Source of the DNA: an uncultured Nitrososphaerota archaeon
Lineage (GTDB): Archaea; Thermoproteota; Nitrososphaeria; Nitrososphaerales; CADDZS01
NCBI GenBank assembly: GCA_963799845.1
Contig: CAWCYI010000006.1
Location: forward strand, 1,184,001 to 1,248,000
Direction: 5' to 3'
Length of the DNA: 64,000 nucleotides
Shown: positions 5,862 to 21,954 of the stretch, one piece after another
Layout: each line of letters starts with the position of its first letter
Position numbering within the stretch: position 1 is the first letter of the stretch
Position numbers and translations under genes: made by a program
Notes under the pieces: generated by a model
What the model saw: only the letters and a program-made list of their open reading frames with translations
Told to the model about the DNA's origin: nothing
The model's database searches: none

Positions 5862-6263
5862 TTGAAGAATGTTTGTAAGAGTCACCACTGCGTCAGCTGC
5901 TGTTATGACACCCAGATGCTGCTCTTGGAGGAGGATGTCAAGAGAATAGCTGGACTGGGCTTCAAAGAGCAGTTTTTCGCCTGGGGCTCCGATGGCTACA
6001 AAGTTCTCAAGAATAGCAGCGCCGGCAGATGCGTCTTTCATGATGGAAAGCAGTGCACGATCTACGAGAATCGACCGGAGGGGTGCAAGCTTTACCCGGT
6101 TGTCTACGACGAAGGTCTGATGTTACCTCTGAAGGATGAACTGTGTCCCTACCGGGATGAATTTGCCATGCCTTGGAAGACCAAAGTTGAACTACGGAAT
6201 ACATTCCAGAAGCTGGTCAGCGAGAGACTTTCAAGAATTGAGAAAACTGAGGACAAAGCCTAG
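5862..6263 (+). CDS. YkgJ-family (CxxCxxCC) Fe-S/Zn cluster protein
   Basis: CKSHHCVSCC...CVF...CTIYENRPEGCKLYP. Confidence 0.9.
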   Translation: MKNVCKSHHCVSCCYDTQMLLLEEDVKRIAGLGFKEQFFAWGSDGYKVLKNSSAGRCVFHDGKQCTIYENRPEGCKLYPVVYDEGLMLPLKDELCPYRDEFAMPWKTKVELRNTFQKLVSERLSRIEKTEDKA

Positions 6264-6516
6264 AGCTGGCATCTGTTAATCTGCAATGCGTGCGAATTTT
6301 GGATCGCAACTGAACAAAGCACGAGAATCCTCGAAAACCAATGCAATAAATCTTGGAATTAACCCAATTCTTCGAAGGGTACACCTTTCTCGGAAATATA
6401 ACAACTAATTTTTGAATAATCCTATGAGGGATGTTCCTTCACTCGGATTCAGGCGTTCACGATGCCTTATATGCTAGGACAACTAAAGATACAGATTACG
6501 GTAGCGTAATAAAATA

Positions 6517-6858
6517 ATGAGTTACGGAAGCGGAAACAGAAACAGATACGGCGGAGGAAGTTATGGCGGTAGCCGAGATCAATTCGGCGGATCTTCAATG
6601 GGTCAAGGCCCTAAACCTGTAGAAGCAGGTAAGGAATACGAAGTAGAAGTAACCGAACTTTCAAGGCGAGGCGACGGAGTCGCGAAGATTCAAGGTTTCG
6701 TCATCTTCGTAAAGGGAGCTAAGATTGGGGACAAAGTAAAGATCAAAGTTGAAACGGTGGGGCCACGGTTTGCAACAGCGACGGCGTTACAACCCGCTGG
6801 GAAGACTGAGCCTTCAACTACTGGTTCAAGTTCGTCGGTAACCGAACCCGTTCAATAG
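6517..6858 (+). CDS. single-TRAM-domain RNA-binding (cold-shock-like) protein
   Basis: KPVEAGKEYEVEVTELSRRGDGVAKIQGFVIFV with a Gly/Tyr/Arg-rich N-tail; TTATAT box about 45-50 nt upstream. Confidence 0.93.
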   Translation: MSYGSGNRNRYGGGSYGGSRDQFGGSSMGQGPKPVEAGKEYEVEVTELSRRGDGVAKIQGFVIFVKGAKIGDKVKIKVETVGPRFATATALQPAGKTEPSTTGSSSSVTEPVQ

Positions 6859-6881
6859 TTAACAAAACTAATATTTTGACG

Positions 6882-6928
6882 AAGAGTCTCTCCGTTTTTT
6901 TGGAGACTCTTTCGCCATCACTTTTTTT
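6882..6928 (+). terminator. hairpin plus T-tract after the TRAM gene
   Basis: AAGAGTCTC...GAGACTCTT 9-bp inverted repeat followed by CTTTTTTT. Confidence 0.6.
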
Positions 6929-6985
6929 GCCCATTGGGATAATCATAATAAATTTACATCGTCGTTTTTCTTCAGTTGTCCACGT

Positions 6986-7159
6986 TTGCCTTTAGTCATA
7001 ATATGCAAGAATAGGAAATGTGGATTCCGGCATCCCTCAGAATTACAGATGGATAAGAAGGCCTTCAGGATTGCCGTGATTGAAAATAATCCGGAGAAAT
7101 GCCCTAAGTGCGGGAAGCACACCCTATACAACAAGGAAGATTATTTCTTTAGCAATTAA
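6986..7159 (+). CDS. 57-aa CPxCG-type zinc-ribbon micro-protein
   Basis: Below the ORF-track cutoff; hand translation from TTG: MPLVIICKNRKCGFRHPSELQMDKKAFRIAVIENNPEKCPKCGKHTLYNKEDYFFSN*. Confidence 0.8.
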   Translation: MPLVIICKNRKCGFRHPSELQMDKKAFRIAVIENNPEKCPKCGKHTLYNKEDYFFSN

Positions 7160-7292
7160 ATGCTGATGAAATTTCAGTTCGGTATTTTACTTAATGCACT
7201 TTGAAATGATATTTTTTCTGTTAAAAGGCCCCCTGACGAATTAAAGTCGATATTCTTTCATGTTTTAATAGCTGGGAGTAATATCTACAGCC

Positions 7293-7547
7293 ATGGAAAC
7301 CGGATCGAAATCTGAGGTAGAGCTGGTGCGAGCAAAGAGATGGGCCGGAACTGCGCGTGATTGGGATCTTGCTCGAGAACTCGACACATGCAAACAAACT
7401 CGCGATTCGTGCCAGAGACAGATCGGTTTGCTCCCCATAAAAACGGATCAGAGCGACTATAATTCCCTGATATCACGAAGTACGCTCAATCAGCAGCGCA
7501 TAGATGTAATCGAAGAAGAAATAGTCAGACGAAAGGGAAGACTCTAG
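7293..7547 (+). CDS. small helical hypothetical protein (84 aa), paralogue of 2683..2949
   Basis: ATG start; motif similarity to 2683..2949. Confidence 0.7.
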   Translation: METGSKSEVELVRAKRWAGTARDWDLARELDTCKQTRDSCQRQIGLLPIKTDQSDYNSLISRSTLNQQRIDVIEEEIVRRKGRL

Positions 7548-7780
7548 CAAAAAGTGCTTCGATACTTCACTTTCAGCGGAGGCCGCGATATAATTTCCGC
7601 GATAAAGTTGAATTGGCCCGCTTATCGAGTTCCTAGATTCCATCTTGGAACTTCAATTCAAAATATTGCTATAACTATCGATTTTCCAACTGGAATTATG
7701 GAATTTCACGTAGAGACAGCTAATTCTTGGCAGTTTTTCGGCGCATTTTCTAGTTTGTAGCGCAATTTTACAGTGGGCGC

Positions 7781-7789
7781 TTTATATAT
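7781..7789 (+). promoter_or_regulatory. TATA box of tbp
   Basis: TTTATATAT about 21-29 nt upstream of the tbp start (leaderless geometry). Confidence 0.65.
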
Positions 7790-7809
7790 CCTGCTTTTAA
7801 TATAATACA

Positions 7810-8385
7810 GTGATGTCAGCTCTCCTTCCGCAGACAAAGGCGCTAATCAGTATAGAGAATGTCGTTGCATCTGCAAGCGTAGATCAAAGAATTGATCTCA
7901 ACGAAATTACTCGTTCCTTTGCAGATGTCGAGTACCACCCGGATCAATTTCCAGGCCTGGTGTTCAGATTAAAGTTTCCAAAAACAGCCACTCTGATTTT
8001 CAGCTCAGGCAAGATGGTCTGCACTGGCGCTAAATCCTCTGAACAGTCTGTAAAGGCTGTGAAGGCTGTCGTTCAAAAGTTGCGGAAAGGCGGCATTCAG
8101 ATCAAAAATGATGCGACCGTCGTCATCCAGAATATCGTCGCTTCAGCTTCTCTTGGTGGCAAGGTTCACCTTGAAGATGCGGCCAGACAACTTCCAAAAT
8201 CGATGTACGAACCCGAGCAGTTCCCGGGTTTGATCCACCGTATGGCGGAACCGAAAACTGTGATCCTGCTATTTGCTTCCGGGAAACTCGTGTGCACCGG
8301 TGCAAAGACCGAGGCCGACGTTTACAACGCCGTGAATAACCTTCACATGACTCTGGAACAGAAAGGGCTCATCAGTTACGCTTGA
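7810..8385 (+). CDS. tbp: TATA-box binding protein
   Basis: Two internal repeats: ENVVAS...YHPDQFPGLVFR...LIFSSGKMVCTGAK and QNIVAS...YEPEQFPGLIHR...LFASGKLVCTGAK. Confidence 0.98.
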   Translation: MMSALLPQTKALISIENVVASASVDQRIDLNEITRSFADVEYHPDQFPGLVFRLKFPKTATLIFSSGKMVCTGAKSSEQSVKAVKAVVQKLRKGGIQIKNDATVVIQNIVASASLGGKVHLEDAARQLPKSMYEPEQFPGLIHRMAEPKTVILLFASGKLVCTGAKTEADVYNAVNNLHMTLEQKGLISYA

Positions 8386-8733
8386 ATGAACGCACCTCTT
8401 GCGTAAGTTGCCTCTCCCTTACTTTCAGAGTTTCAAGCTATTCGCTATTTCCGAAATGTCCTCAGGGAGAATTCTGAATACCCAACTTCAATTGTTTTTG
8501 AAGCTGGCGAAATAATCTTCAGTATTCTGTACCAAATACCTGAGATGTGATCTCATCTAACATCTGAGCAACAAATCGTAGATTAAGATCCGGGCGTTTG
8601 ACCCGCGGAGAATCGAAATATCACATTTTTGATGGCCCTTCCTACTTATCACTCAACGAAGGGAGCGTCAGGCGGGATCATGAGCCCTCGGAGTACAATC
8701 TACTCACGTTTCAACTTCTAACAATAACGCAAT

Positions 8734-8758
8734 TAAGTTTTGTAAGTTTGTAAGTTTG
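8734..8758. repeat. short tandem repeat TAAGTTT(T)G x3
   Basis: TAAGTTTTG TAAGTTTG TAAGTTTG read directly. Confidence 0.7.
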
Positions 8759-8946
8759 TAGGGCTTTCGCGATCGTCTCGCTACGAAGATAAAGAACATT
8801 GGATACAAAGGATTCCTAGGAAATCTTTTTCATTCATTTTTCATTTTAGTAAGATTCTTGAGAATCAAAGATATTTCTTTTTGCTAATGCCAAGTCTTCA
8901 TTGATTTAAGAAATAAGAGAATGCAGGATCCCCTGAAGCTTGTTGT

Positions 8947-8984
8947 AAAAAGGTGGGACAGGCAAGTCAACCGCCTTACTTGCC
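8947..8984 (-). terminator. hairpin plus T-tract downstream of the 46-aa peptide gene
   Basis: GGCAAGT(8961-67)/ACTTGCC(8978-84) stem, followed on the minus strand by TGTCCCACCTTTTT. Confidence 0.6.
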
Positions 8985-9014
8985 CTAATTGCAGATTGAT
9001 AGGCGCTCTTTGAC

Positions 9015-9155
9015 CTAACCAGAGCCGCCGCCGCCTATGACATCCAACAGAGGATGTTTTGCGGTTTCTAGATGTCCGAAGTGCGCCGCAACGGCGATTG
9101 CGGAAACTATGGAGAGTGCGATTAGTCCTTGTTTGATTCTTTCGTCGATGGACAT
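9015..9155 (-). CDS. 46-aa putative secreted/membrane propeptide with a Gly-rich C-terminus
   Basis: Hand translation MSIDERIKQGLIALSIVSAIAVAAHFGHLETAKHPLLDVIGGGGSG*; charged n-region then a ~14-aa hydrophobic h-region; AAGGTG upstream; terminator downstream. Confidence 0.7.
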   Translation of the reverse strand: MSIDERIKQGLIALSIVSAIAVAAHFGHLETAKHPLLDVIGGGGSG

Positions 9156-9199
9156 GAGCCAGTTGGTTTGGCACCTTTTAGAAATATGTTTCGGTTTTA

Positions 9200-9232
9200 G
9201 CGGAAAAAGTGTTTATATTCAGTGATATATAG
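9200..9232. promoter_or_regulatory. candidate divergent TATA elements between the peptide gene and the regulator
   Basis: GCGGAAAAAGTG-TTTATAT (BRE/TATA-like on plus; TATAAA on minus) and GATATATAG. Confidence 0.45.
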
Positions 9233-9414
9233 CATTACTATCTTTTAAAAGAGCCAGATTAGACCTTGAATGAGAAAGTTTTGGCTGCGCTCTTCGGACT
9301 CAAAGGGCAGAAATAATAGCTGGAAACGTGACCAAACCAGAAGAACCTGTGTCGCTCCGCTTCACTTATCATAAATACGGCAAACGAGTGTAGAACTGGG
9401 TTGGGAGACCATAA

Positions 9415-10542
9415 TTGAGAATTCCAGCCGATGATGTTTCCGAGTTTCTTACAAGACTCTCCCCCTTCGTGGACGACGATGGCGCGCGTAATCTTAACAA
9501 GATCTCGGAGGAACTCTCGATACCTTATCAGACTCTGAGATTTAGGATGCAGCGCCTAAAAGACCAAGGTATTACTATAACTGCATTGGTAGATCCGGAG
9601 AAATTTGGACTTTCAAGGTTCAGAGTCAGTCTAGACGTTTCGTCCGACCTTACCGATGTCATTTCTTTCTTCGGAAGCCTTCATCAGAATGCTGGTCTGC
9701 ATTACTTTGCGCGTTCCCTATCCTCTCACTCGTTTGATTGCGAATTCATGATACCGGGGCGCAAGGTGGGAGAGCTATCGAAGCTTCTGAAGTCACTCGA
9801 GGAGATGAAACTTGTCGAAAATTTCAATTTGCGCAAGATCGTCTGGAAGGAGATAATTGGGATGAAGACCAAGTATTACGATTACGTAAACGGCGTATGG
9901 GACATTGACTTTTCTCGCCTGTCGGGCAATCCATCAGACTTCAAGGCTCACCCGACGACAGATTCCTCGTCACTCTCTTCGATTAAGAACAAGTTCGACA
10001 GCATTGATTTGCAGATAATCAAAACGTTGCAGTTGGATCCGTGGACAAAATCCGTTGACATTGCTAGAAGACTGAATCTGACCGACAGCGATATTTCATA
10101 CCACATGAGAAACCACGTCTTTGGATCGAAGATGATTCGTGGCTTCAAGTTTACGTGGATAGGCAGCAAAGATGCGCGGGCGAAACACACAGTTCTTCTA
10201 ATTACTTATGACTTCAGATCATTATCGGAGGACCTCGCCAGGCATGCGATGTCTATATTCACTGCATGCCCTTTTACCTGGAATCACGTGTTGATCGAAA
10301 ATGGCGAGTACATGGCAGAGTTGATGATCCCCGTTTCGCAGATGCCAGATACATTGCAATATATTGCGAACAGACTGAGACCGCTCAAGCTCAAACCCGA
10401 CGAGATGGGATATGTTGATTGGTCCTGCTCGCTGAACTATACAATCCCTTACTTTATGTACGATGTCGAGGCTGGCTGGCAGTTTGACAGTGAAAGAAGC
10501 CTAGGCCACATCATCCAGATGATAAAGAAAGAACAGACGTAG
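9415..10542 (+). CDS. tandem Lrp/AsnC-type winged-helix transcriptional regulator (375 aa)
   Basis: Two HTH segments (NLNKISEELSIPYQTLRFRMQRL; DSIDLQIIKTLQLDP..SVDIARRLNLTDSDISYH), each followed by an alpha/beta effector-like region. Confidence 0.8.
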   Translation: MRIPADDVSEFLTRLSPFVDDDGARNLNKISEELSIPYQTLRFRMQRLKDQGITITALVDPEKFGLSRFRVSLDVSSDLTDVISFFGSLHQNAGLHYFARSLSSHSFDCEFMIPGRKVGELSKLLKSLEEMKLVENFNLRKIVWKEIIGMKTKYYDYVNGVWDIDFSRLSGNPSDFKAHPTTDSSSLSSIKNKFDSIDLQIIKTLQLDPWTKSVDIARRLNLTDSDISYHMRNHVFGSKMIRGFKFTWIGSKDARAKHTVLLITYDFRSLSEDLARHAMSIFTACPFTWNHVLIENGEYMAELMIPVSQMPDTLQYIANRLRPLKLKPDEMGYVDWSCSLNYTIPYFMYDVEAGWQFDSERSLGHIIQMIKKEQT

Positions 10543-10569
10543 AAGGGTCAGACCCGGTTATTGAGGCGA

Positions 10570-11343
10570 TCAAGAGAATGCCTGTCCCCCATCAACAATA
10601 ATCGTCTGACCTGTGATCAAGTCGCTTTCGTCTGAACAAAGAAATACCAGCGTTCCCAGAAGATCCTTTGGAAAGATGTCCTTTCTAATGCTTCTCTGGC
10701 TCCTGTAAAAATCGATTTTTTCCTGGCTACGAAGTTTTCCTGCCTCGCTCAGGACAAATCCAGGGGCAATCGCGTTAACATTGATTGAGAATTCCCCGAG
10801 CTCCCTGGCAAGGGCCCTTGTCATCGAAATCAGCCCGCCCTTTGAAGTGACATAGTGCAGCATGTATGGGACACCAACGTGAAATACACCCGATGCCTGG
10901 TTGACTATCTTTCCCTTGCCGCGCCTTTTCATGAACGGAACCACAGCCCTTGAACAAAGAAAAGGTCCTTTCAAGTTTACAGCTTGGATTTTATCCCATT
11001 CCTCAACCGAGATCTCAAGAATGCTCTTGTAATTCAATCCATAGTATATTGCTGCATTATTGACAAGAATGTCGACGCTCCCAAATTCTTCAGCGGTTCG
11101 GTTTGCCATAGAGTTTACGCTCAATTCTGAAGAAACGTCAGTTTTTATCGCCAAGGCTCTATCACCAAGAGCTCGAATCTCACCTGCCACTTTTTCGGCC
11201 TTTTCTTCGTTTATCTCCGCAACAGTGATACTCGCTCCTTCATCCGCAAGTCTGATTGCGTATTCTCTGCCTATGCCCTGACCCGATCCTGTTACTATGG
11301 CAGATTTGCCTTCGAGCCTACGTTTCTTCAATGAAAAAACCAA
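10570..11343 (-). CDS. SDR-family oxidoreductase
   Basis: TGSGQGIG, NNAA, YVTSK (YxxxK), NAIAPG. Confidence 0.95.
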   Translation of the reverse strand: MVFSLKKRRLEGKSAIVTGSGQGIGREYAIRLADEGASITVAEINEEKAEKVAGEIRALGDRALAIKTDVSSELSVNSMANRTAEEFGSVDILVNNAAIYYGLNYKSILEISVEEWDKIQAVNLKGPFLCSRAVVPFMKRRGKGKIVNQASGVFHVGVPYMLHYVTSKGGLISMTRALARELGEFSINVNAIAPGFVLSEAGKLRSQEKIDFYRSQRSIRKDIFPKDLLGTLVFLCSDESDLITGQTIIVDGGQAFS

Positions 11344-11391
11344 CGCCCTAATTTTTATCCTGATTGCGGGCTGGCATTATCTATCAAAGCT

Positions 11392-12060
11392 TCACATATC
11401 TCGGGTCATTCGATGCCCGAATGCCGCAACATAGACTGCAACGCCTTTGGCGTTGTTTGCAAGTCCTATCTGAACTCCTAGCTCCGCTTTTCTTTGGTTC
11501 TCTTCGGTTGAGCAGTATCTTTCAAGGACCCGACTCCCAAGCGGAGCGTGCTTTCCCTCATCTTCTATCTGCGGGAGAACAACCTCGTCCTTGAATTTCT
11601 CGTCTAGTCCGGGTAATTCAGCGACCCTCCTCATCCAATAATCGCCCACCGTCTCACCGGCAAAATTCCTAGCCGCAAAATAGAGGACGGGGTCGTTTGG
11701 GTTGTAATCGTATATCGCGCGCCACTCCGGCGCCTTCATCACGACTTCATTGTACCACTCGTCGATGTCAAATATGTCACCGCGTGCCCGAACAAACTGA
11801 GCGAGTAACTGAAAGTGGTTAGCTTCTTCCCAGCTCTGCTCGAATAAGGCGACTTTGATGTCGTCCTCAACCTTGAATCTCAGGGCTTGCAATGCCGCGT
11901 CCTCCGCGTGCCAGAGCTCTCCCATCGCCCAGTCCTTCGTTAGAATATTGAATGATTTTGTTTCGATACCGGGGTAGGTCGCCTTGATTGAACCTAGTTT
12001 TTCGAAGTTGTTGCCGAAATATTTCTCTTTCAGGTTCTGAACGAATTCGATCGAATTCAT
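11392..12060 (-). CDS. ferritin-like diiron-carboxylate protein
   Basis: E (HAED)...EEANH...E (AGET)...DEGKH: the two-ExxH four-helix-bundle pattern. Start placed at ATG 12060 (the track extends to 12117). Confidence 0.75.
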   Translation of the reverse strand: MNSIEFVQNLKEKYFGNNFEKLGSIKATYPGIETKSFNILTKDWAMGELWHAEDAALQALRFKVEDDIKVALFEQSWEEANHFQLLAQFVRARGDIFDIDEWYNEVVMKAPEWRAIYDYNPNDPVLYFAARNFAGETVGDYWMRRVAELPGLDEKFKDEVVLPQIEDEGKHAPLGSRVLERYCSTEENQRKAELGVQIGLANNAKGVAVYVAAFGHRMTRDM

Positions 12061-12325: not shown

Positions 12326-14091
12326 TCAAACTTGGTCGACAACCGCATCGACGACAGCGGATATCTTCTCGTTTCTAATTGTCTCAAAACCTGACAAAAT
12401 TGCTTCCTTTAGTTCGGCAGCGTTTTTGACTTTCCAACCAGTTGCGCCACAGGCCTTTGCTGCTTCAACGTAATCCGGCTGAGGACCAATTCTTACTCCC
12501 GCGTAATGATCTTTTGACTTGGAATAGCCGTTAGGATAACCGCGATCGACAACTCCCTTCATCGCGTTGTATCCACCGTTATCTATTATCACAGTCAAGA
12601 TTGGAAGTCTGATATCTGCGAGAGACCCAAAACACCGACGTAGGGTTTGAGTAAACGTACCCTCCATCACCAACTATGCACAAAACATCACTTCCGGTAT
12701 TGGCGAGCTTTAAGCCAAGTGCGTTTCCGAGACCATCGCCTAGGCTACTGCCACCTAAGGAGAAGTAAGTTCCAGGCTCATTTGAATCAATGTAGGAAGC
12801 GACAACCATTTCATTGGAAACTCCCTCCGACATCACTATCGTATTTGAGTTCTTAAGATCATTTAGAATAGAAATAACCGAGCCAATCTTCATAGGTGTT
12901 TTGTCTTTACCGGACTCGGCAGTTTTCTTCAAACTGTTGCGAATCGCTTGACTGGCATCGTGAATTTTGCTCGTTCTTTCATCTAATTTACTTGCATGAC
13001 CATTTTGTGCCTTGGTTTTGAGAATCTTGACTAGACTGTGAAGGGCTAATTGGGAAGAAGCGCAGACTGATAGATGAACGGGAAACCCCCATAACGGCAT
13101 TCCTGACTTTAGTGGGTCAACATCGATTTGAATGATCTTGACGTCCTGTCTAATTCGATGAATCGCTGGAGCCCACGGCACATCTACGTCCACAAGCAGG
13201 ATAACATCGGCACTTTCTATCCATTCTTTTGGAAAGCCTCTCAGGCTTAGAGGATTGCTTGAAGGAAAATTCATTCTTTTTCTCTGGGGCTCTATGACGG
13301 GTGCGCCCAGAATCTCCGCCAGTTCGACAAGCTCTGGAACGGCCTTGGGATTTCGCCCCAGAGTACTCTGTGAGGATAATCGGTGCGTCCGCTCCTTCAA
13401 GAATACTTGCTATTCTAACAAGATTTTCCTCACTGGCTTGTGAAGGCTCAGGCGAAATGTACACATCAGTTCGAGGTATATTCACCTCCGTCTGCTTTTC
13501 TGCCAATAATTCCCTTGGTAAGATTAGATAGGCGGGACCTTTTGGTTCCGAATTCGCTACCTGGAGAGCTCGTCCAAGAACTTGGGGCAAGTTAGAATTG
13601 GTTTTCAGTTCGTAGGTCCACTTTGAAAATTGCCTAGCAACACCCAGTTGATCGAAAATTTCTTGATCCCAGTGGTACGGTCTGTCACGCCCACCGAGAA
13701 GCTCTCCTTCAAACGTGTAAGGTGCTCTACCTGCGACGATCAGAACTGGCTCTCTTCCACGGTAGATGTTGTGAAGGGCCCCACCGATCTCCATCGTTCC
13801 AAGGCCAACATGGACCATGATAGTTTGAGCCTTCCCAACAGTCATGGAGTAACCATGAGACATGGAGAGAGCTAGATGCTCGGTAAGGCACATTATCGGT
13901 TTTGGATTTTTTCGACCTTCGATCTCAAATCTTGACATTTGCTCAAGAACCGGATAAAAATCTGAACCGGGATTGTAAAACAAAAAATCCACTTTGTACG
14001 CTGAAAGGAGCTCAAGAAAAGAGCTCCCACCGTCGCTACTTGGAATCGTATGTTCGTTCCTAGGATTCAATATATACCAGACTGTTACCAA
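12326..14091 (-). CDS. ThDP-dependent enzyme (acetolactate synthase/decarboxylase-like), split by two +1 frameshifts (~13362, ~12611)
   Basis: NPGSDF, EHLALSMSHG, HVGLGT, and GDG...DNGGY ThDP motif spread over three consecutive frames. Confidence 0.85.
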
Positions 14092-18194: not shown

Positions 18195-20316
18195 TTGCAA
18201 CAGAAAAAACTAACTAAGGACTATCCACAATTTGCTCGAATATTGCGATATAATATTGGAATCGATATCGGCGGAACTTTTACCGATTTTGTCGGCTTCG
18301 ATTCAAAGAGCTCTCGGCTATTCTCAGAAAAAATCTTGACGACTCCCAGTCGCCCTGCCGACGCAGTTATACAAGGTCTGGAGAAACTGGCTCTCTCCCG
18401 CGGAATCAAAATTGAGGAAATTGACAGAATCTTTCACGCGACAACCCTCGCAACGAACGCCGTTATCGAAAGGAAGGGCGCGAAGGCTGGACTCATAACC
18501 ACGGCCGGGTTCGAGGATGTTCTAGACATCAGAAAAGGACTCCGATACAATCAGTACGACCTAAACATCCAGATTCCTAAGCCGTATGTTCCAAGACATC
18601 TGCGCAGGGGAGTTTCCGAAAGAATGTTTGCTTCCGGTGAAATTCGAAACAAATTAGATCCGGTCGAACTCGAAAAATGTGTTTCGGAACTTGTTGATGA
18701 GAGAATTGAATCTCTTGCAATCTGCTTTCTTCATTCGTATGCGAATCCCCTTCATGAAAAAAGAGCGAAAGAACTTGTTTCTACCAAATTCCCAAATCTA
18801 ACTGTCTCGTGCTCTCATGAGATTACTTCTCAAGCAAGAGAATACGAGCGAACTTCTACAACTGTCATTGATGCGTACATCAAACCGATAATTCACGAGT
18901 ATATTGATGACTTGTCTATGCGGCTATCTGAATTGGGTTTCTCTGGAAAACTACTTCTCATGACGTGTACGGGAGGCGTAGTTGAGGTCGAGCTAGCGAA
19001 AAATATTCCGGTACTACTTCTAGAGTCTGGTCCTGTTGCTGGTGTTTCGATGGGTCTGAATATTGCCAAGAGACTAGACCTTCAGGGGATGTTTTCATTT
19101 GATATGGGAGGAACTACAGCCAAAGGCTGTCTTGTAAGGAATCGGAGAATAGAAAAATCGTATGAATTTGAAGCAGCGCGTTTCGATAAATTCAGACGTG
19201 GAAGCGGAGTCCCCGTTAGCATTCCGGTTGTAAGGCTAATTGAAACGGGCTCTGGAGGAGGGAGCATCGCTAGAATTGATCAATTGGGAATGGTGAGAGT
19301 TGGCCCCGATAGTTCCGGATCGTCTCCTGGACCTGCCTGCTACGGACTAGGTGGGACCGAAGCCACCGTAACAGACTCGGATTTGGTCTTAGGATATCTT
19401 GATGAAAGCTACTTCGTAGGAGGCACTTTGAGTCTTCGACCTGATCTTGCGAAGAGCGCTATCCAAGAAAAGATAGCTGAACCATTAGACATCCCGGTGG
19501 AGAACGCAGCTTGGCTAATTCACGAACGGGTAAATGAAGATGTGGCTTCAGCATTTCGGCTTTATTCATCGGAAGTCGGAGTCGACTATAGAAAATTCGC
19601 GTTCTTACCTTTTGGCGGAGCGGGTCCGGTACACTCCTCGAGGATCGCGAGGAAGTTGGGTCTAAGAACCCTAGTGATTCCTCCAAGGGCCGGCGTACTT
19701 TCAGCCGAAGGCCTCCTGGTGACTCCCATTTCCATAGATCTAGCATTGTCAAAACGCGTCGAATTGTCCGATTTGAGTTACGAAGAGGTACTCAGATACC
19801 TTCGAGAAATTGATCGACAACGCAACGTCCCTTCTTTCATCGGCAGAAGGACGGTCAAAGCCGTTTGACGTAACAAGGTCCCTTGACCTGTGCTATCATG
19901 GACAAGGATACGAAGTCCCATTGGCATTGACTGGAAAGGGAGTAACAAGAAAGGAGTACTCAAACTTGATCGTGAGTTTCGAGAACGCGTACAAGGAAAA
20001 ATATTCGATTACAAAGATTTCCAATCACGTCGACGTCACTTCATTCAAAGTGAATGTATCTTCTAAGAGTTCAGCATTGCCCCGAAGAATTCTCTATACA
20101 GTTCCGTCGAGACCGAAATCCTCCAGGCAAGCATTTGATCCAGATTCAATGAAATTTCGGACCTTCAAATTACTTAACCGGTATTCAATGAAAGCAGGAG
20201 ACTCCGTCAGGGGGCCTGCATTGATTCAAGAGGTCGAGTCGACTACAGTTCTGCTATCGAATTCATCCGCGACTATCGACAAGTTCGGAAACATTCTGGT
20301 GAGTCTTCATGGCTAA
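18195..20316 (+). CDS. hyuA: hydantoinase/5-oxoprolinase subunit A (one +1 frameshift, ~19788)
   Basis: IGIDIGGTFTD, HATTLATNA, ESGP, DMGGTT, GPACYG, FGGAG; the C-terminal part (GPALIQE) is in the next frame. True start may be TTG 18243. Confidence 0.9.
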
Positions 20317-21954
20317 GACGCAACTCGATGCGGGCTCATTAGGATTCATCTGGGATCGTTTGATATCGATAACTGATGAAGCATTCAGCGCCCTTATTCG
20401 TAGTTCATTCTCTCCGATCGTAAGGGAGGCGCTTGATGCCACTTGTCAGCTTTTTGACTCACAGGGGAGGTCAATTGCACAGGCCTGGGCGGGGCCCCCG
20501 TCGTTCATCGGGACATTGCCAACCACGCTCAACGAGATCCTCAAAGTCATTCCGGAAGAGGATTTGAATCCCGGTGACGTTCTGGCAACTAACAATCCAT
20601 GGATCGGGACTGGACAGATCAATGATATCTCGATCATTTTTCCGGTCTTTGGAAAATATGGAAAGAAAATAATTGCATATGCGGGGGCAGTAAGTCATCT
20701 CCCGGATATTGGAGGGCAGTTGTGGTCGGCGACTTCCACAGAGGTGTTTGAAGAGGGATTGCAAATTCCTCCTGTTAAGATTGCCAAGAGGGGCGTTCTG
20801 GACCCTCTACTCAAAGAGGTAATTAGCGCAAACGTACGTTTGCCAGCTCAGGTGATTGCAGATGTACTTTCTGACATATCATGCGTCCAAACCATGGGGC
20901 GATTATTACAATCCGTCCTTGAGGAATATGGACTAAAGGACCTCGTCTCAATTTCGGATCAAATAATCGAAATGTCCTCTCGAGCAATAAGGAAAGACTT
21001 GGAATCCCTGCCCCATGAAAAATGCAGATCAGAAGTAATGGTCGAGGGTATTGATCTCGACCATAAGATTTGTTGCGAGGTCAGCATAAGAAATAATTCA
21101 GTCGACATAGACTTCGACGGTACCTCGCGAAAGTCGAACTTTGGAATTAACTCGCCCTTGGTTTACACCCGGGCGTACACCATATATGCAGCAAAGTGTG
21201 TTGTTTCGCCTTACATTCCAAACAATCAAGGAGTCATGGACGTTTTCAATGTCTCGGCTCCCGACGATTCCATCTTAAACCCCAGGCCCCCGCAGCTTGC
21301 GGAGCTAGGCACATCATGGGATGGCACGCCCCCATCGCCGTATGGAGGGCGATGTCTCAAATTGTTCCTGAGAAGGTGATAGCTGATCCAGGCCTTGCTT
21401 CCAGCTGTACAATCAAAGGAACCGACAACAAAGGTAGAACTTTTGTTGCCATTACTGTGATCGGAGTCGGAGGAATGGGAGCAAGACCCGGACTGGATGG
21501 ACTAGACACTACCGGAATTCCAACAGTCACTTCACTAATCTCAGCGGAAGTAATGGAAAGTACTACGCCTCTTCTAGTTGAAGAGCTTCGGTTGATCCCT
21601 GATTCCGGTGGCGCGGGAAGATATCGAGGAGGTCTCGGTGCATCTTACACCATTAGAAACATTTCTGGGAAGCCTGCAAGGGTCGCGTTTATTGCAAACA
21701 AATACAAATTCGCTCCTGAGGGGATGGCTGGCGGTCTTTCAGGATCTCGGAGGAAGACTTTCGTGGACGGTAAAGAAGTAAGTCCGATGGGCATGTACAT
21801 GTTGGCTGAAAACGGGACCATCAAGATGGAAAATGCCGGGAGCGGAGGATTTTTCGATCCAAAACTGCGCGACCGAGCGAAGGTCGAGGAGGACCTGAAA
21901 AATGGATTTATCGGTAAGGTGTCCGCCAAGGAGGCATACGGGTATTCATTCTGA
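20309..21954 (+). CDS. hyuB: hydantoinase/5-oxoprolinase subunit B (one -1 frameshift in the C-run at ~21287-21291)
   Basis: FSPIVRE, HLPDIGG, EEGLQIPP, DSGGAGRYRGGLG, GSGGFFDP. Confidence 0.9.

Follow-up and report, generated by a model that had tools for sequence, protein, structure and literature searches.

The window examined here is a 64,000-nucleotide stretch of DNA from an uncultured Nitrososphaerota archaeon (assembly GCA_963799845.1, contig CAWCYI010000006.1, positions 1,184,001 to 1,248,000), whose genome (G000) spans 4.6 Mb in 9 contigs and is 86.7% complete. A short open reading frame (ORF) on the minus strand of the window encodes a 46-residue microprotein, and head-to-head with it, 259 nt away, lies the gene for a 375-residue regulator with a tandem Lrp/AsnC fold. 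Linkage of the two genes is near-obligate, and the analysis suggests that they form a dedicated signalling pair, an apparently undescribed two-gene unit. The elements of the pair are as follows.

9015..9155, minus strand: microprotein gene, 46 residues plus stop (ORF translation, paralogue, orthologues, profile matches, dN/dS)
9155-9126, minus strand: microprotein residues 1-10, conserved N-terminal decapeptide
9125-9075, minus strand: residues 11-27, predicted membrane helix
9074-9018, minus strand: residues 28-46, tail with HPLLDVIGG motif and variable end
9415..10542, plus strand: tandem Lrp/AsnC-like regulator gene, 375 residues, TTG start
9436..9855, plus strand: regulator repeat 1, residues 8-147, winged helix-turn-helix (wHTH) and RAM-like alpha/beta domain (PDB profile, AlphaFold2 model, weak HTH_20 match)
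9997..10437, plus strand: regulator repeat 2, residues 195-341, AsnC-type wHTH and RAM-like domain (Pfam, AlphaFold2 model)

The ORF at 9015-9155 had been picked out in an earlier note on this DNA, and its translation is precisely the 46 residues that the note quoted. Judged by sequence comparison it is a genuine gene, well beyond chance, because a paralogue is present in the same genome (60% identity, E 3.8e-12), the proportion of nonsynonymous differences (pN, 0.08-0.34) is below that of synonymous differences (pS, 0.46-0.92) in all 45 pairs of ten orthologues, and dN/dS is low (0.03-0.34 in the 26 of these pairs with unsaturated dS). The purifying selection that the note had asked about is thus evident. 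Orthologues with 55-74% identity are found in 11 of the 12 other genomes of the window's family. No family in Pfam or NCBIfam matches the microprotein, and a search of the ESM Atlas gave no usable match. It is a clear example of a functional small gene of the kind that gene callers often overlook or tag as hypothetical.

The TTG start of the regulator gene aligns with the ATG starts of its orthologues. Two wHTH/effector repeats had been proposed for the product, and this architecture is borne out by Pfam, by PDB profile matches to both halves and by an AlphaFold2 model. In Pfam, residues 195-232 match HTH_24 (33.9 bits, cut-off 21.9) and HTH_AsnC-type (29.8 bits, cut-off 27), and residues 21-53 give a sub-threshold match to HTH_20 (22 bits, cut-off 27). 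A profile built from 19 homologues matches PDB entries at positions 10-140 (E 4e-7) and 190-249 (E 5e-6), both halves aligning with full-length archaeal Lrp/AsnC (FFRP) structures. The AlphaFold2 model (pLDDT 88.7, pTM 0.87) contains two HTH plus beta-alpha-beta-beta-alpha-beta units, which are joined by a disordered linker at residues 181-189 and each followed by a short extra hairpin. The Pfam effector model PF01037 does not match the regulator at E <= 0.01, but in the predicted fold each half aligns with full-length FFRPs over ~145 residues (TM-score 0.57-0.65), so a RAM domain is indicated by the modelled fold and not by a sequence family. Set beside Lrp/AsnC (feast/famine) regulators of known structure, such as PH1519, PH0140 and PH0061 of Pyrococcus and ST1022 of Sulfolobus, each half is therefore alike in profile (E 4e-7 to 8e-4) and in fold. 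The regulator differs from them in carrying two full units in one chain, in an extra aromatic hairpin after each RAM-like domain (with W-D-[IV]-D and T-I-P-Y...W motifs), in the silence of PF01037 and in having a dedicated microprotein neighbour.

To our knowledge, the siroheme decarboxylase NirDL/AhbAB, an enzyme of haem synthesis, is the sole solved tandem Lrp-like chain. It is also the best whole-chain fold match of the regulator (4ch7, E 3e-10, TM-score 0.52/0.60) at 9-10% identity, and the NirD-type Pfam family does not match the regulator. Unlike NirDL/AhbAB, the regulator has HTHs that still match DNA-binding HTH models and occurs in up to 10 paralogues per genome (10 in genome G143), and nothing observed in it points to an enzyme. 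The database names of its close relatives are 'DNA-binding Lrp family transcriptional regulator', 'winged helix-turn-helix' or 'hypothetical'. We read the 375-residue protein as a fused double Lrp/AsnC regulator rather than an enzyme, with DNA binding predicted. A Y-H-x-x-x-H motif is present at residues 229-234, in the recognition helix of the second HTH (window 9997-10164). H230 and H234 are invariant in alignments of 19 and of 30 sequences, and Y229 is nearly so in the former (at least 90%); the motif could serve in DNA contact or metal binding.

The microprotein family has the consensus MTxDEKIRxG, a helix, LG, and P-L-[DE]-x-[IV]-G-G followed by 2-5 variable residues. Across 106 sequences, K6 is conserved in 102, R8 in 97, an acidic residue (D/E) at position 4 in 97 and the glycine of LG in 104, and position 10 is G or A in 101. 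The median length of the uncharged hydrophobic core, 18 residues, is that of a membrane anchor and exceeds that of a typical cleavable signal, and small residues are spaced along the helix. Basic residues number a median of two before the helix and none after it, and the tail has a net charge of -1. In the AlphaFold2 model a single helix spans residues 3-30 (pLDDT ~95 for residues 1-20), a second, short one covers 36-40, and the end of the chain is disordered. The 'AVAA' sequence that had been taken for a signal-peptidase-like end is confined to the window's own family, as are the His residues and the AHFGH motif. Two further interpretations of the C-terminal region were set aside: a double-glycine leader, in which GG precedes a core peptide and a C39-peptidase transporter takes part, as only 2-5 residues follow GG and no transporter gene is conserved nearby, and a ubiquitin-like or Pup-like C-terminal GG, as further residues come after the GG here and the protein forms a membrane helix.

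The segments of the microprotein diverge at different rates. The decapeptide has an identity of 0.62-0.80 within clusters of microproteins defined by their regulators and 0.62 between them, which makes it the most conserved segment between clusters. For the helix the values are 0.71-0.74 inside the two large clusters but 0.34 between clusters; for the tail they are ~0.5 (0.49-0.53) and 0.35. A four-member cluster has the reverse order, the tail (0.49) being better conserved than the helix (0.31).

The arrangement of the two genes recurs widely. Nine published genomes of the window's family, like the window itself, carry the two genes head-to-head, separated by ~170-400 nt as measured from match coordinates, and one unpublished genome has the same arrangement; outside this family the genes lie tail-to-tail. 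Five near-complete genomes of family f9 together contain nine microprotein matches (E <= 1.5e-5), all of them 25-204 nt from a converging regulator homologue. Nine of the 20 regulator homologues in those genomes have such a match, and three of the remaining 11 have a diverged small ORF of the same build in the same place. Among regions fetched around microprotein matches, 19 of 20 contain an adjacent convergent regulator, including 10 of the 11 that were previously unknown; at one locus (L056) no regulator lies within 4 kb of the microprotein gene. Loci in distant families with the same arrangement include L015, L017, L018, L019, L021 and L038. Several loci have stable chromosomal neighbours in common, and no third gene is conserved, the commonest next neighbour family being present at 6 of 31 loci. 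Comparable small ORFs near regulator homologues, which the earlier note had set as a test, are therefore found in several families, as products of 38-47 residues with a hydrophobic core and a P-L-[DE]-x-[IV]-G-G tail. The idea of a small-ORF/regulator module is supported at the level of gene sequences, because such ORFs recur beside regulator homologues under purifying selection.

Some copies depart from this pattern. The second microprotein copy of the window genome (L002, G000:C6:1690525-1693653, microprotein at 1486-1629 on the minus strand) is flanked by a DDE_Tnp_1 transposase and a gene with bPH_3 and zinc-ribbon domains. Its ORF and promoter-like block are intact, and its tail, of the GPGPISH type, is closer to the regulator-linked copies of two sister genomes than to the window copy. 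Genome G143 has two regulator copies with identical match scores (L067 and L073), each 11 nt from a nearly identical diverged 48-residue partner ORF. At L007 (246-1148, plus strand) a 300-codon open frame converges on a regulator and ends in a microprotein-like tail, ...GPLDPIGPGAGSG (E 0.023), with neither the N-terminal motif nor the helix. This frame is possibly a remnant, or else the similarity may have arisen by chance.

A census with a 17-sequence microprotein profile covered 401 genomes sampled across the order, of which 106 were positive. By family the positive genomes number 11/12 in f1, 88/97 in f9, 2/15 in f14, 1/1 in f5, 1/1 in f17, 1/2 in f18, 1/112 in f12 and 0/112 in f15. The sole f12 match and one of the f1 matches are in unpublished genomes, and the claims made here are independent of both. 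Many genomes have two to five pairs, and some have up to five copies of the microprotein. A 36-sequence profile found no further positive genome among 400 sampled across the phylum. Among 1.84 billion proteins it retrieved 107 representatives at E <= 1e-3, of 38-98 residues apart from one spurious 399-residue match (the translation of a repeat); the longer ones are miscalls of upstream starts, and in none of the 107 is the microprotein fused to another domain. A narrower, alignment-based locus search returned 12 loci, all from the window's own family. The distribution is almost entirely that of lineages that appear not to oxidise ammonia: the tested genomes of f12 and f15 have amoA, which was not found in G000 (86.7% complete), G011 or G020. 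In the ammonia-oxidising families the pair was not found, except for one weak match. As a separate observation, G000 has ~45 matches to PF00496 (oligopeptide/dipeptide-binding proteins), a very large expansion for an archaeon, which together with the failure to find amoA in it would fit a peptide-scavenging heterotroph.

Microprotein types track regulator clusters, and the two distance matrices are correlated (Spearman 0.65, with 0 of 2000 permutations as high), the outcome of a co-variation check that the earlier note had recommended. These comparisons show the pair duplicating, diverging and being inherited as a unit; the correlation by itself is no proof of binding, because linkage alone would yield the same result. 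Mirror correlations by segment, between parts of the microprotein and domains of the regulator, gave no consistent signal. Co-folding of regulator and microprotein was graded as weak support, with a median score of 0.54 (runs of 0.54, 0.67 and 0.52) and 0.02 for the highest-scoring of three controls; pLDDT of the partner did not fall below 62, and at least 83% of contacts were common to the runs. Custom alignments were used and the calibration counts hold only roughly: 58 of 80 solved complexes pass the mark, as do 2 of the 110 mismatched pairs, and scores at or below 0.60 include only 7 of the 80 solved complexes along with both passing mismatches. This is a weak pass over the controls, and the output listed no contacts.

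Signals around the two genes are as follows.

9175..9200, strand unassigned: conserved upstream block, 20-45 nt before the microprotein ATG, with 17 invariant columns in five aligned intergenic regions
9366..9377, plus strand: TATA-like element TTATCATAAATA, 38-49 nt before the regulator start, similar in 3 of 5 aligned orthologous regions
8947..8951, minus strand: T5 run, 64-68 nt past the microprotein stop

The block at 9175-9200 includes a perfect 12-bp AT-rich palindrome in two orthologues. Its probable function is that of core promoter (TATA/BRE) for an mRNA with a short leader or none, and a role as operator is possible. It replaces the shared TATA-like elements that had been placed at 9200-9232. 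Microprotein genes of the convergent type have CTTAAA(A) ~25-30 nt upstream of the ATG, which we likewise read as the core promoter of a leaderless or short-leader mRNA, and TTATCATAAATA is a putative promoter element of the regulator gene. An AAGGTG sequence, noted earlier upstream of the ORF and taken as a Shine-Dalgarno candidate, is present but lies 16-21 nt from the ATG and is not conserved in the four closest orthologous loci. Of the proposed hairpin and T5 terminator at 8947-8984, the T5 run stands as a probable archaeal oligo-T terminator, and T5 or longer runs lie within 90 nt downstream of 26 of 36 family members; the hairpin is not supported (z = +0.44, 124 of 200 shuffles folding at least as well), and a terminator scan gave 0 sites. 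A candidate inverted repeat, ATGCR-N4-YGCAT, occurs upstream of convergent-type genes at ~5 of 13 loci and was dropped, being ubiquitous in the loci when two mismatches are allowed.

We tentatively favour, at somewhat less than an even chance, the reading in which the 46-residue product is a membrane-resident partner that tethers or modulates the regulator. This reading is preferred because of the long core, the stronger conservation of the helix than of the tail in the two large clusters, and the near-universal decapeptide. In the mechanism that we infer, which extends to topology, physical binding, the binding segment, the signal and the DNA targets of the regulator, the microprotein would be a single-pass protein that remains in the membrane, its N-terminus cytoplasmic and its C-terminal tail on the outer side. 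There it would bind its cognate tandem Lrp/AsnC factor, most likely via the cytoplasmic decapeptide, and so tether or modulate it, while the lineage-specific helix would pack within the membrane. Sensing or processing would take place at the outer tail (P-L-[DE]-x-I-G-G), which is short, acidic and rich in glycine, and a change in the tail or intramembrane cleavage would free or switch the regulator. The adjacency of the pair survives the change in orientation, which favours this proposal; two to five pairs per genome fit parallel signalling channels better than one housekeeping function; and the weak co-fold pass may add a little.

Several observations weigh against a membrane-resident partner. 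Many regulator paralogues are without a detectable partner, including the other eight of the f9 homologues described above, which have no small partner ORF at the fetched loci, and microprotein genes occur as orphans (the second copy in the window genome, L056 and L033). The predicted orientation, N-terminus in the cytoplasm and tail outside, follows from the positive-inside rule only. The co-fold pass is weak, and silent on which segment would bind. A cytoplasmic stub of 10 residues is a small handle for a 375-residue protein, and a plain tether leaves the conserved motif in the outer tail unexplained.

Single-pass anti-sigma factors that regulated intramembrane proteolysis releases, and small membrane proteins that modulate regulators, are known, RseA and MgrB among them. 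The arrangement proposed here resembles these in that a membrane-anchored partner would hold or tune a regulator; a helix with its N-terminus inside and only a short stub outside would also suit a site-2 protease. It differs in the cytoplasmic part of ~10 residues, the Lrp-type partner and the archaeal host, and here binding and cleavage are hypothetical.

A second, rather doubtful explanation is that the microprotein is the precursor of an SHP-like pheromone, cut by an intramembrane or extracellular protease to release a [DE]-x-[IV]-G-G peptide that would be re-imported by an oligopeptide ABC transporter and bind the RAM-like domains. The earlier note had put forward an export, re-import and sensing module of this type, and the pairing of small ORF and regulator on which it built holds up: the small ORF adjoins a cytoplasmic regulator gene, divergent or convergent, in several paralogous pairs per genome. 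In the Rgg/SHP quorum-sensing pairs of streptococci, shp lies beside rgg on the opposite strand, SHP peptides have 22-23 residues, the active C-terminal octapeptide of SHP3 is DIIIIVGG, and SHP requires the protease Eep and Opp (PMC3150281). The present pair is alike in having, next to the gene of a cytoplasmic regulator and on the other strand, a small ORF that is poorly annotated or unannotated, in a hydrophobic peptide whose acidic residue is followed by aliphatics and GG near the C-terminus, a tail motif that recalls the SHP3 octapeptide, and in several paralogous pairs. It is unlike in its tandem Lrp/AsnC fold, where Rgg has HTH and TPR domains, in a microprotein twice as long (38-47 residues compared with the 22-23 given there), in the conserved acidic/basic N-terminus and the residues past GG, and in its archaeal host, and export, processing and import are hypothetical here.

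Against this explanation, the two large clusters have a tail that varies more than the helix, and the N-terminus, which a leader would not need, is the segment best conserved between clusters. Two to five variable residues follow GG, the 18-residue core exceeds a typical cleavable signal, and no protease, exporter or processing gene is linked. As for RRNPP systems, the pair has the adjacent small gene, and its receptor is without a TPR domain by Pfam and by fold. Site-2 proteases act on single-pass helices that have the N-terminus inside and many G, S, A and P residues, a description that would suit the microprotein, and the window genome has 6 Peptidase_M50 matches (three of them strong) alongside the 45 PF00496 matches; these M50 and Opp genes are merely permissive, being general housekeeping or nutritional functions that carry no specific weight. 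The co-fold pass is equally compatible with a bound tail. That the pair represents archaeal ribosomally encoded peptide signalling, the first of its kind, in which a tail pheromone would pass between cells and be read by the RAM-like domains of a tandem Lrp/AsnC receptor, is improbable; if true, the receptor class would be unrelated to bacterial RRNPP and each paralogous pair would be a separate channel.

Lrp/AsnC regulators often adjoin genes under their control, and the two genes might be a plain regulator-target pair, which we consider unlikely. The Lrp-type factor would sense a metabolite such as an amino acid and control the microprotein gene with no contact with its product, and the microprotein would have a membrane role of its own, in stress protection or in modulating a transporter or channel. 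In keeping with this, the microprotein promoter overlaps with the conserved AT-rich block, which is a palindrome in two orthologues; orphan copies retain an intact ORF and block; and the spaced small residues suggest packing against another membrane helix. However, linkage persists in the convergent arrangement, where no promoter is shared, a need for up to five separately regulated helices of 40 residues is hard to see, and the co-fold passes, weakly, with controls near zero.

A small membrane toxin with a DNA-binding protein that represses or neutralises it, in a toxin-antitoxin or addiction-like module, is very improbable. In its favour are the small size and hydrophobicity of the peptide, the multiple copies and patchy distribution of the module, and an orphan that adjoins a DDE transposase, but stable chromosomal neighbours are common to several loci, a 375-residue tandem Lrp protein is unlike known antitoxins, and conservation across the order's families points to vertical inheritance; no hints of the toxin-antitoxin type turned up, PADLOC not having been searched. 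Sites of class III signal peptides have K/R at -2 and G/A at -1 before the hydrophobic stretch. A very short type IV pilin-like protein cut after glycine 10 is scarcely credible: the short charged N-terminus, glycine and hydrophobic helix recall such a site, but 97 of 106 sequences have Y, L, I or F ahead of the glycine and not K or R, the basic residue falling at -3, the mature product would have only ~30-36 residues, and no pilus assembly genes are linked.

The pair lies at a boundary between housekeeping and catabolic genes, as the earlier note had described; the gene content on both sides agrees. Upstream are genes for a thermosome subunit, an ACT-domain protein, a TRAM protein and TBP, and downstream are those for a short-chain dehydrogenase/reductase (SDR), a thiamine pyrophosphate (TPP) enzyme, ABC transporter parts, a luciferase-like monooxygenase, hydantoinase A/B, an aminotransferase, an aldehyde dehydrogenase and UbiD. 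Rfam gave no match in 6000-12000 at E <= 1, and no tRNA gene was found in the window. The TPP-dependent enzyme is spread over three overlapping minus-strand ORFs (window 12329-14091).

13150-14091, minus strand: N-terminal TPP domain
12579-13400, minus strand: middle part
12326-12673, minus strand: C-terminal TPP domain

The split reflects either frameshifts in the gene or indel errors in the assembly. The hydantoinase B ORF at 20309-21376 (plus strand) covers only profile positions 6-321 of 519, and an ORF at 21196-21951 (plus strand) overlaps it in another frame; the region 20309-21951 is probably a second frameshifted gene, which would fit indels in a long-read assembly.

Bacteria are known to pair regulators with dedicated small peptides, either secreted or in the membrane. 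In a literature search at the level of abstracts, the abstracts described neither an Lrp/AsnC factor with a dedicated microprotein nor archaeal gene-encoded peptide signalling. At stake is whether gene-encoded peptides or microproteins control transcription in archaea. Since the module is tiny, with two genes in 1.6 kb, such control is directly testable, and the pair would mark lineage-specific environmental sensing in abundant uncultured soil archaea.

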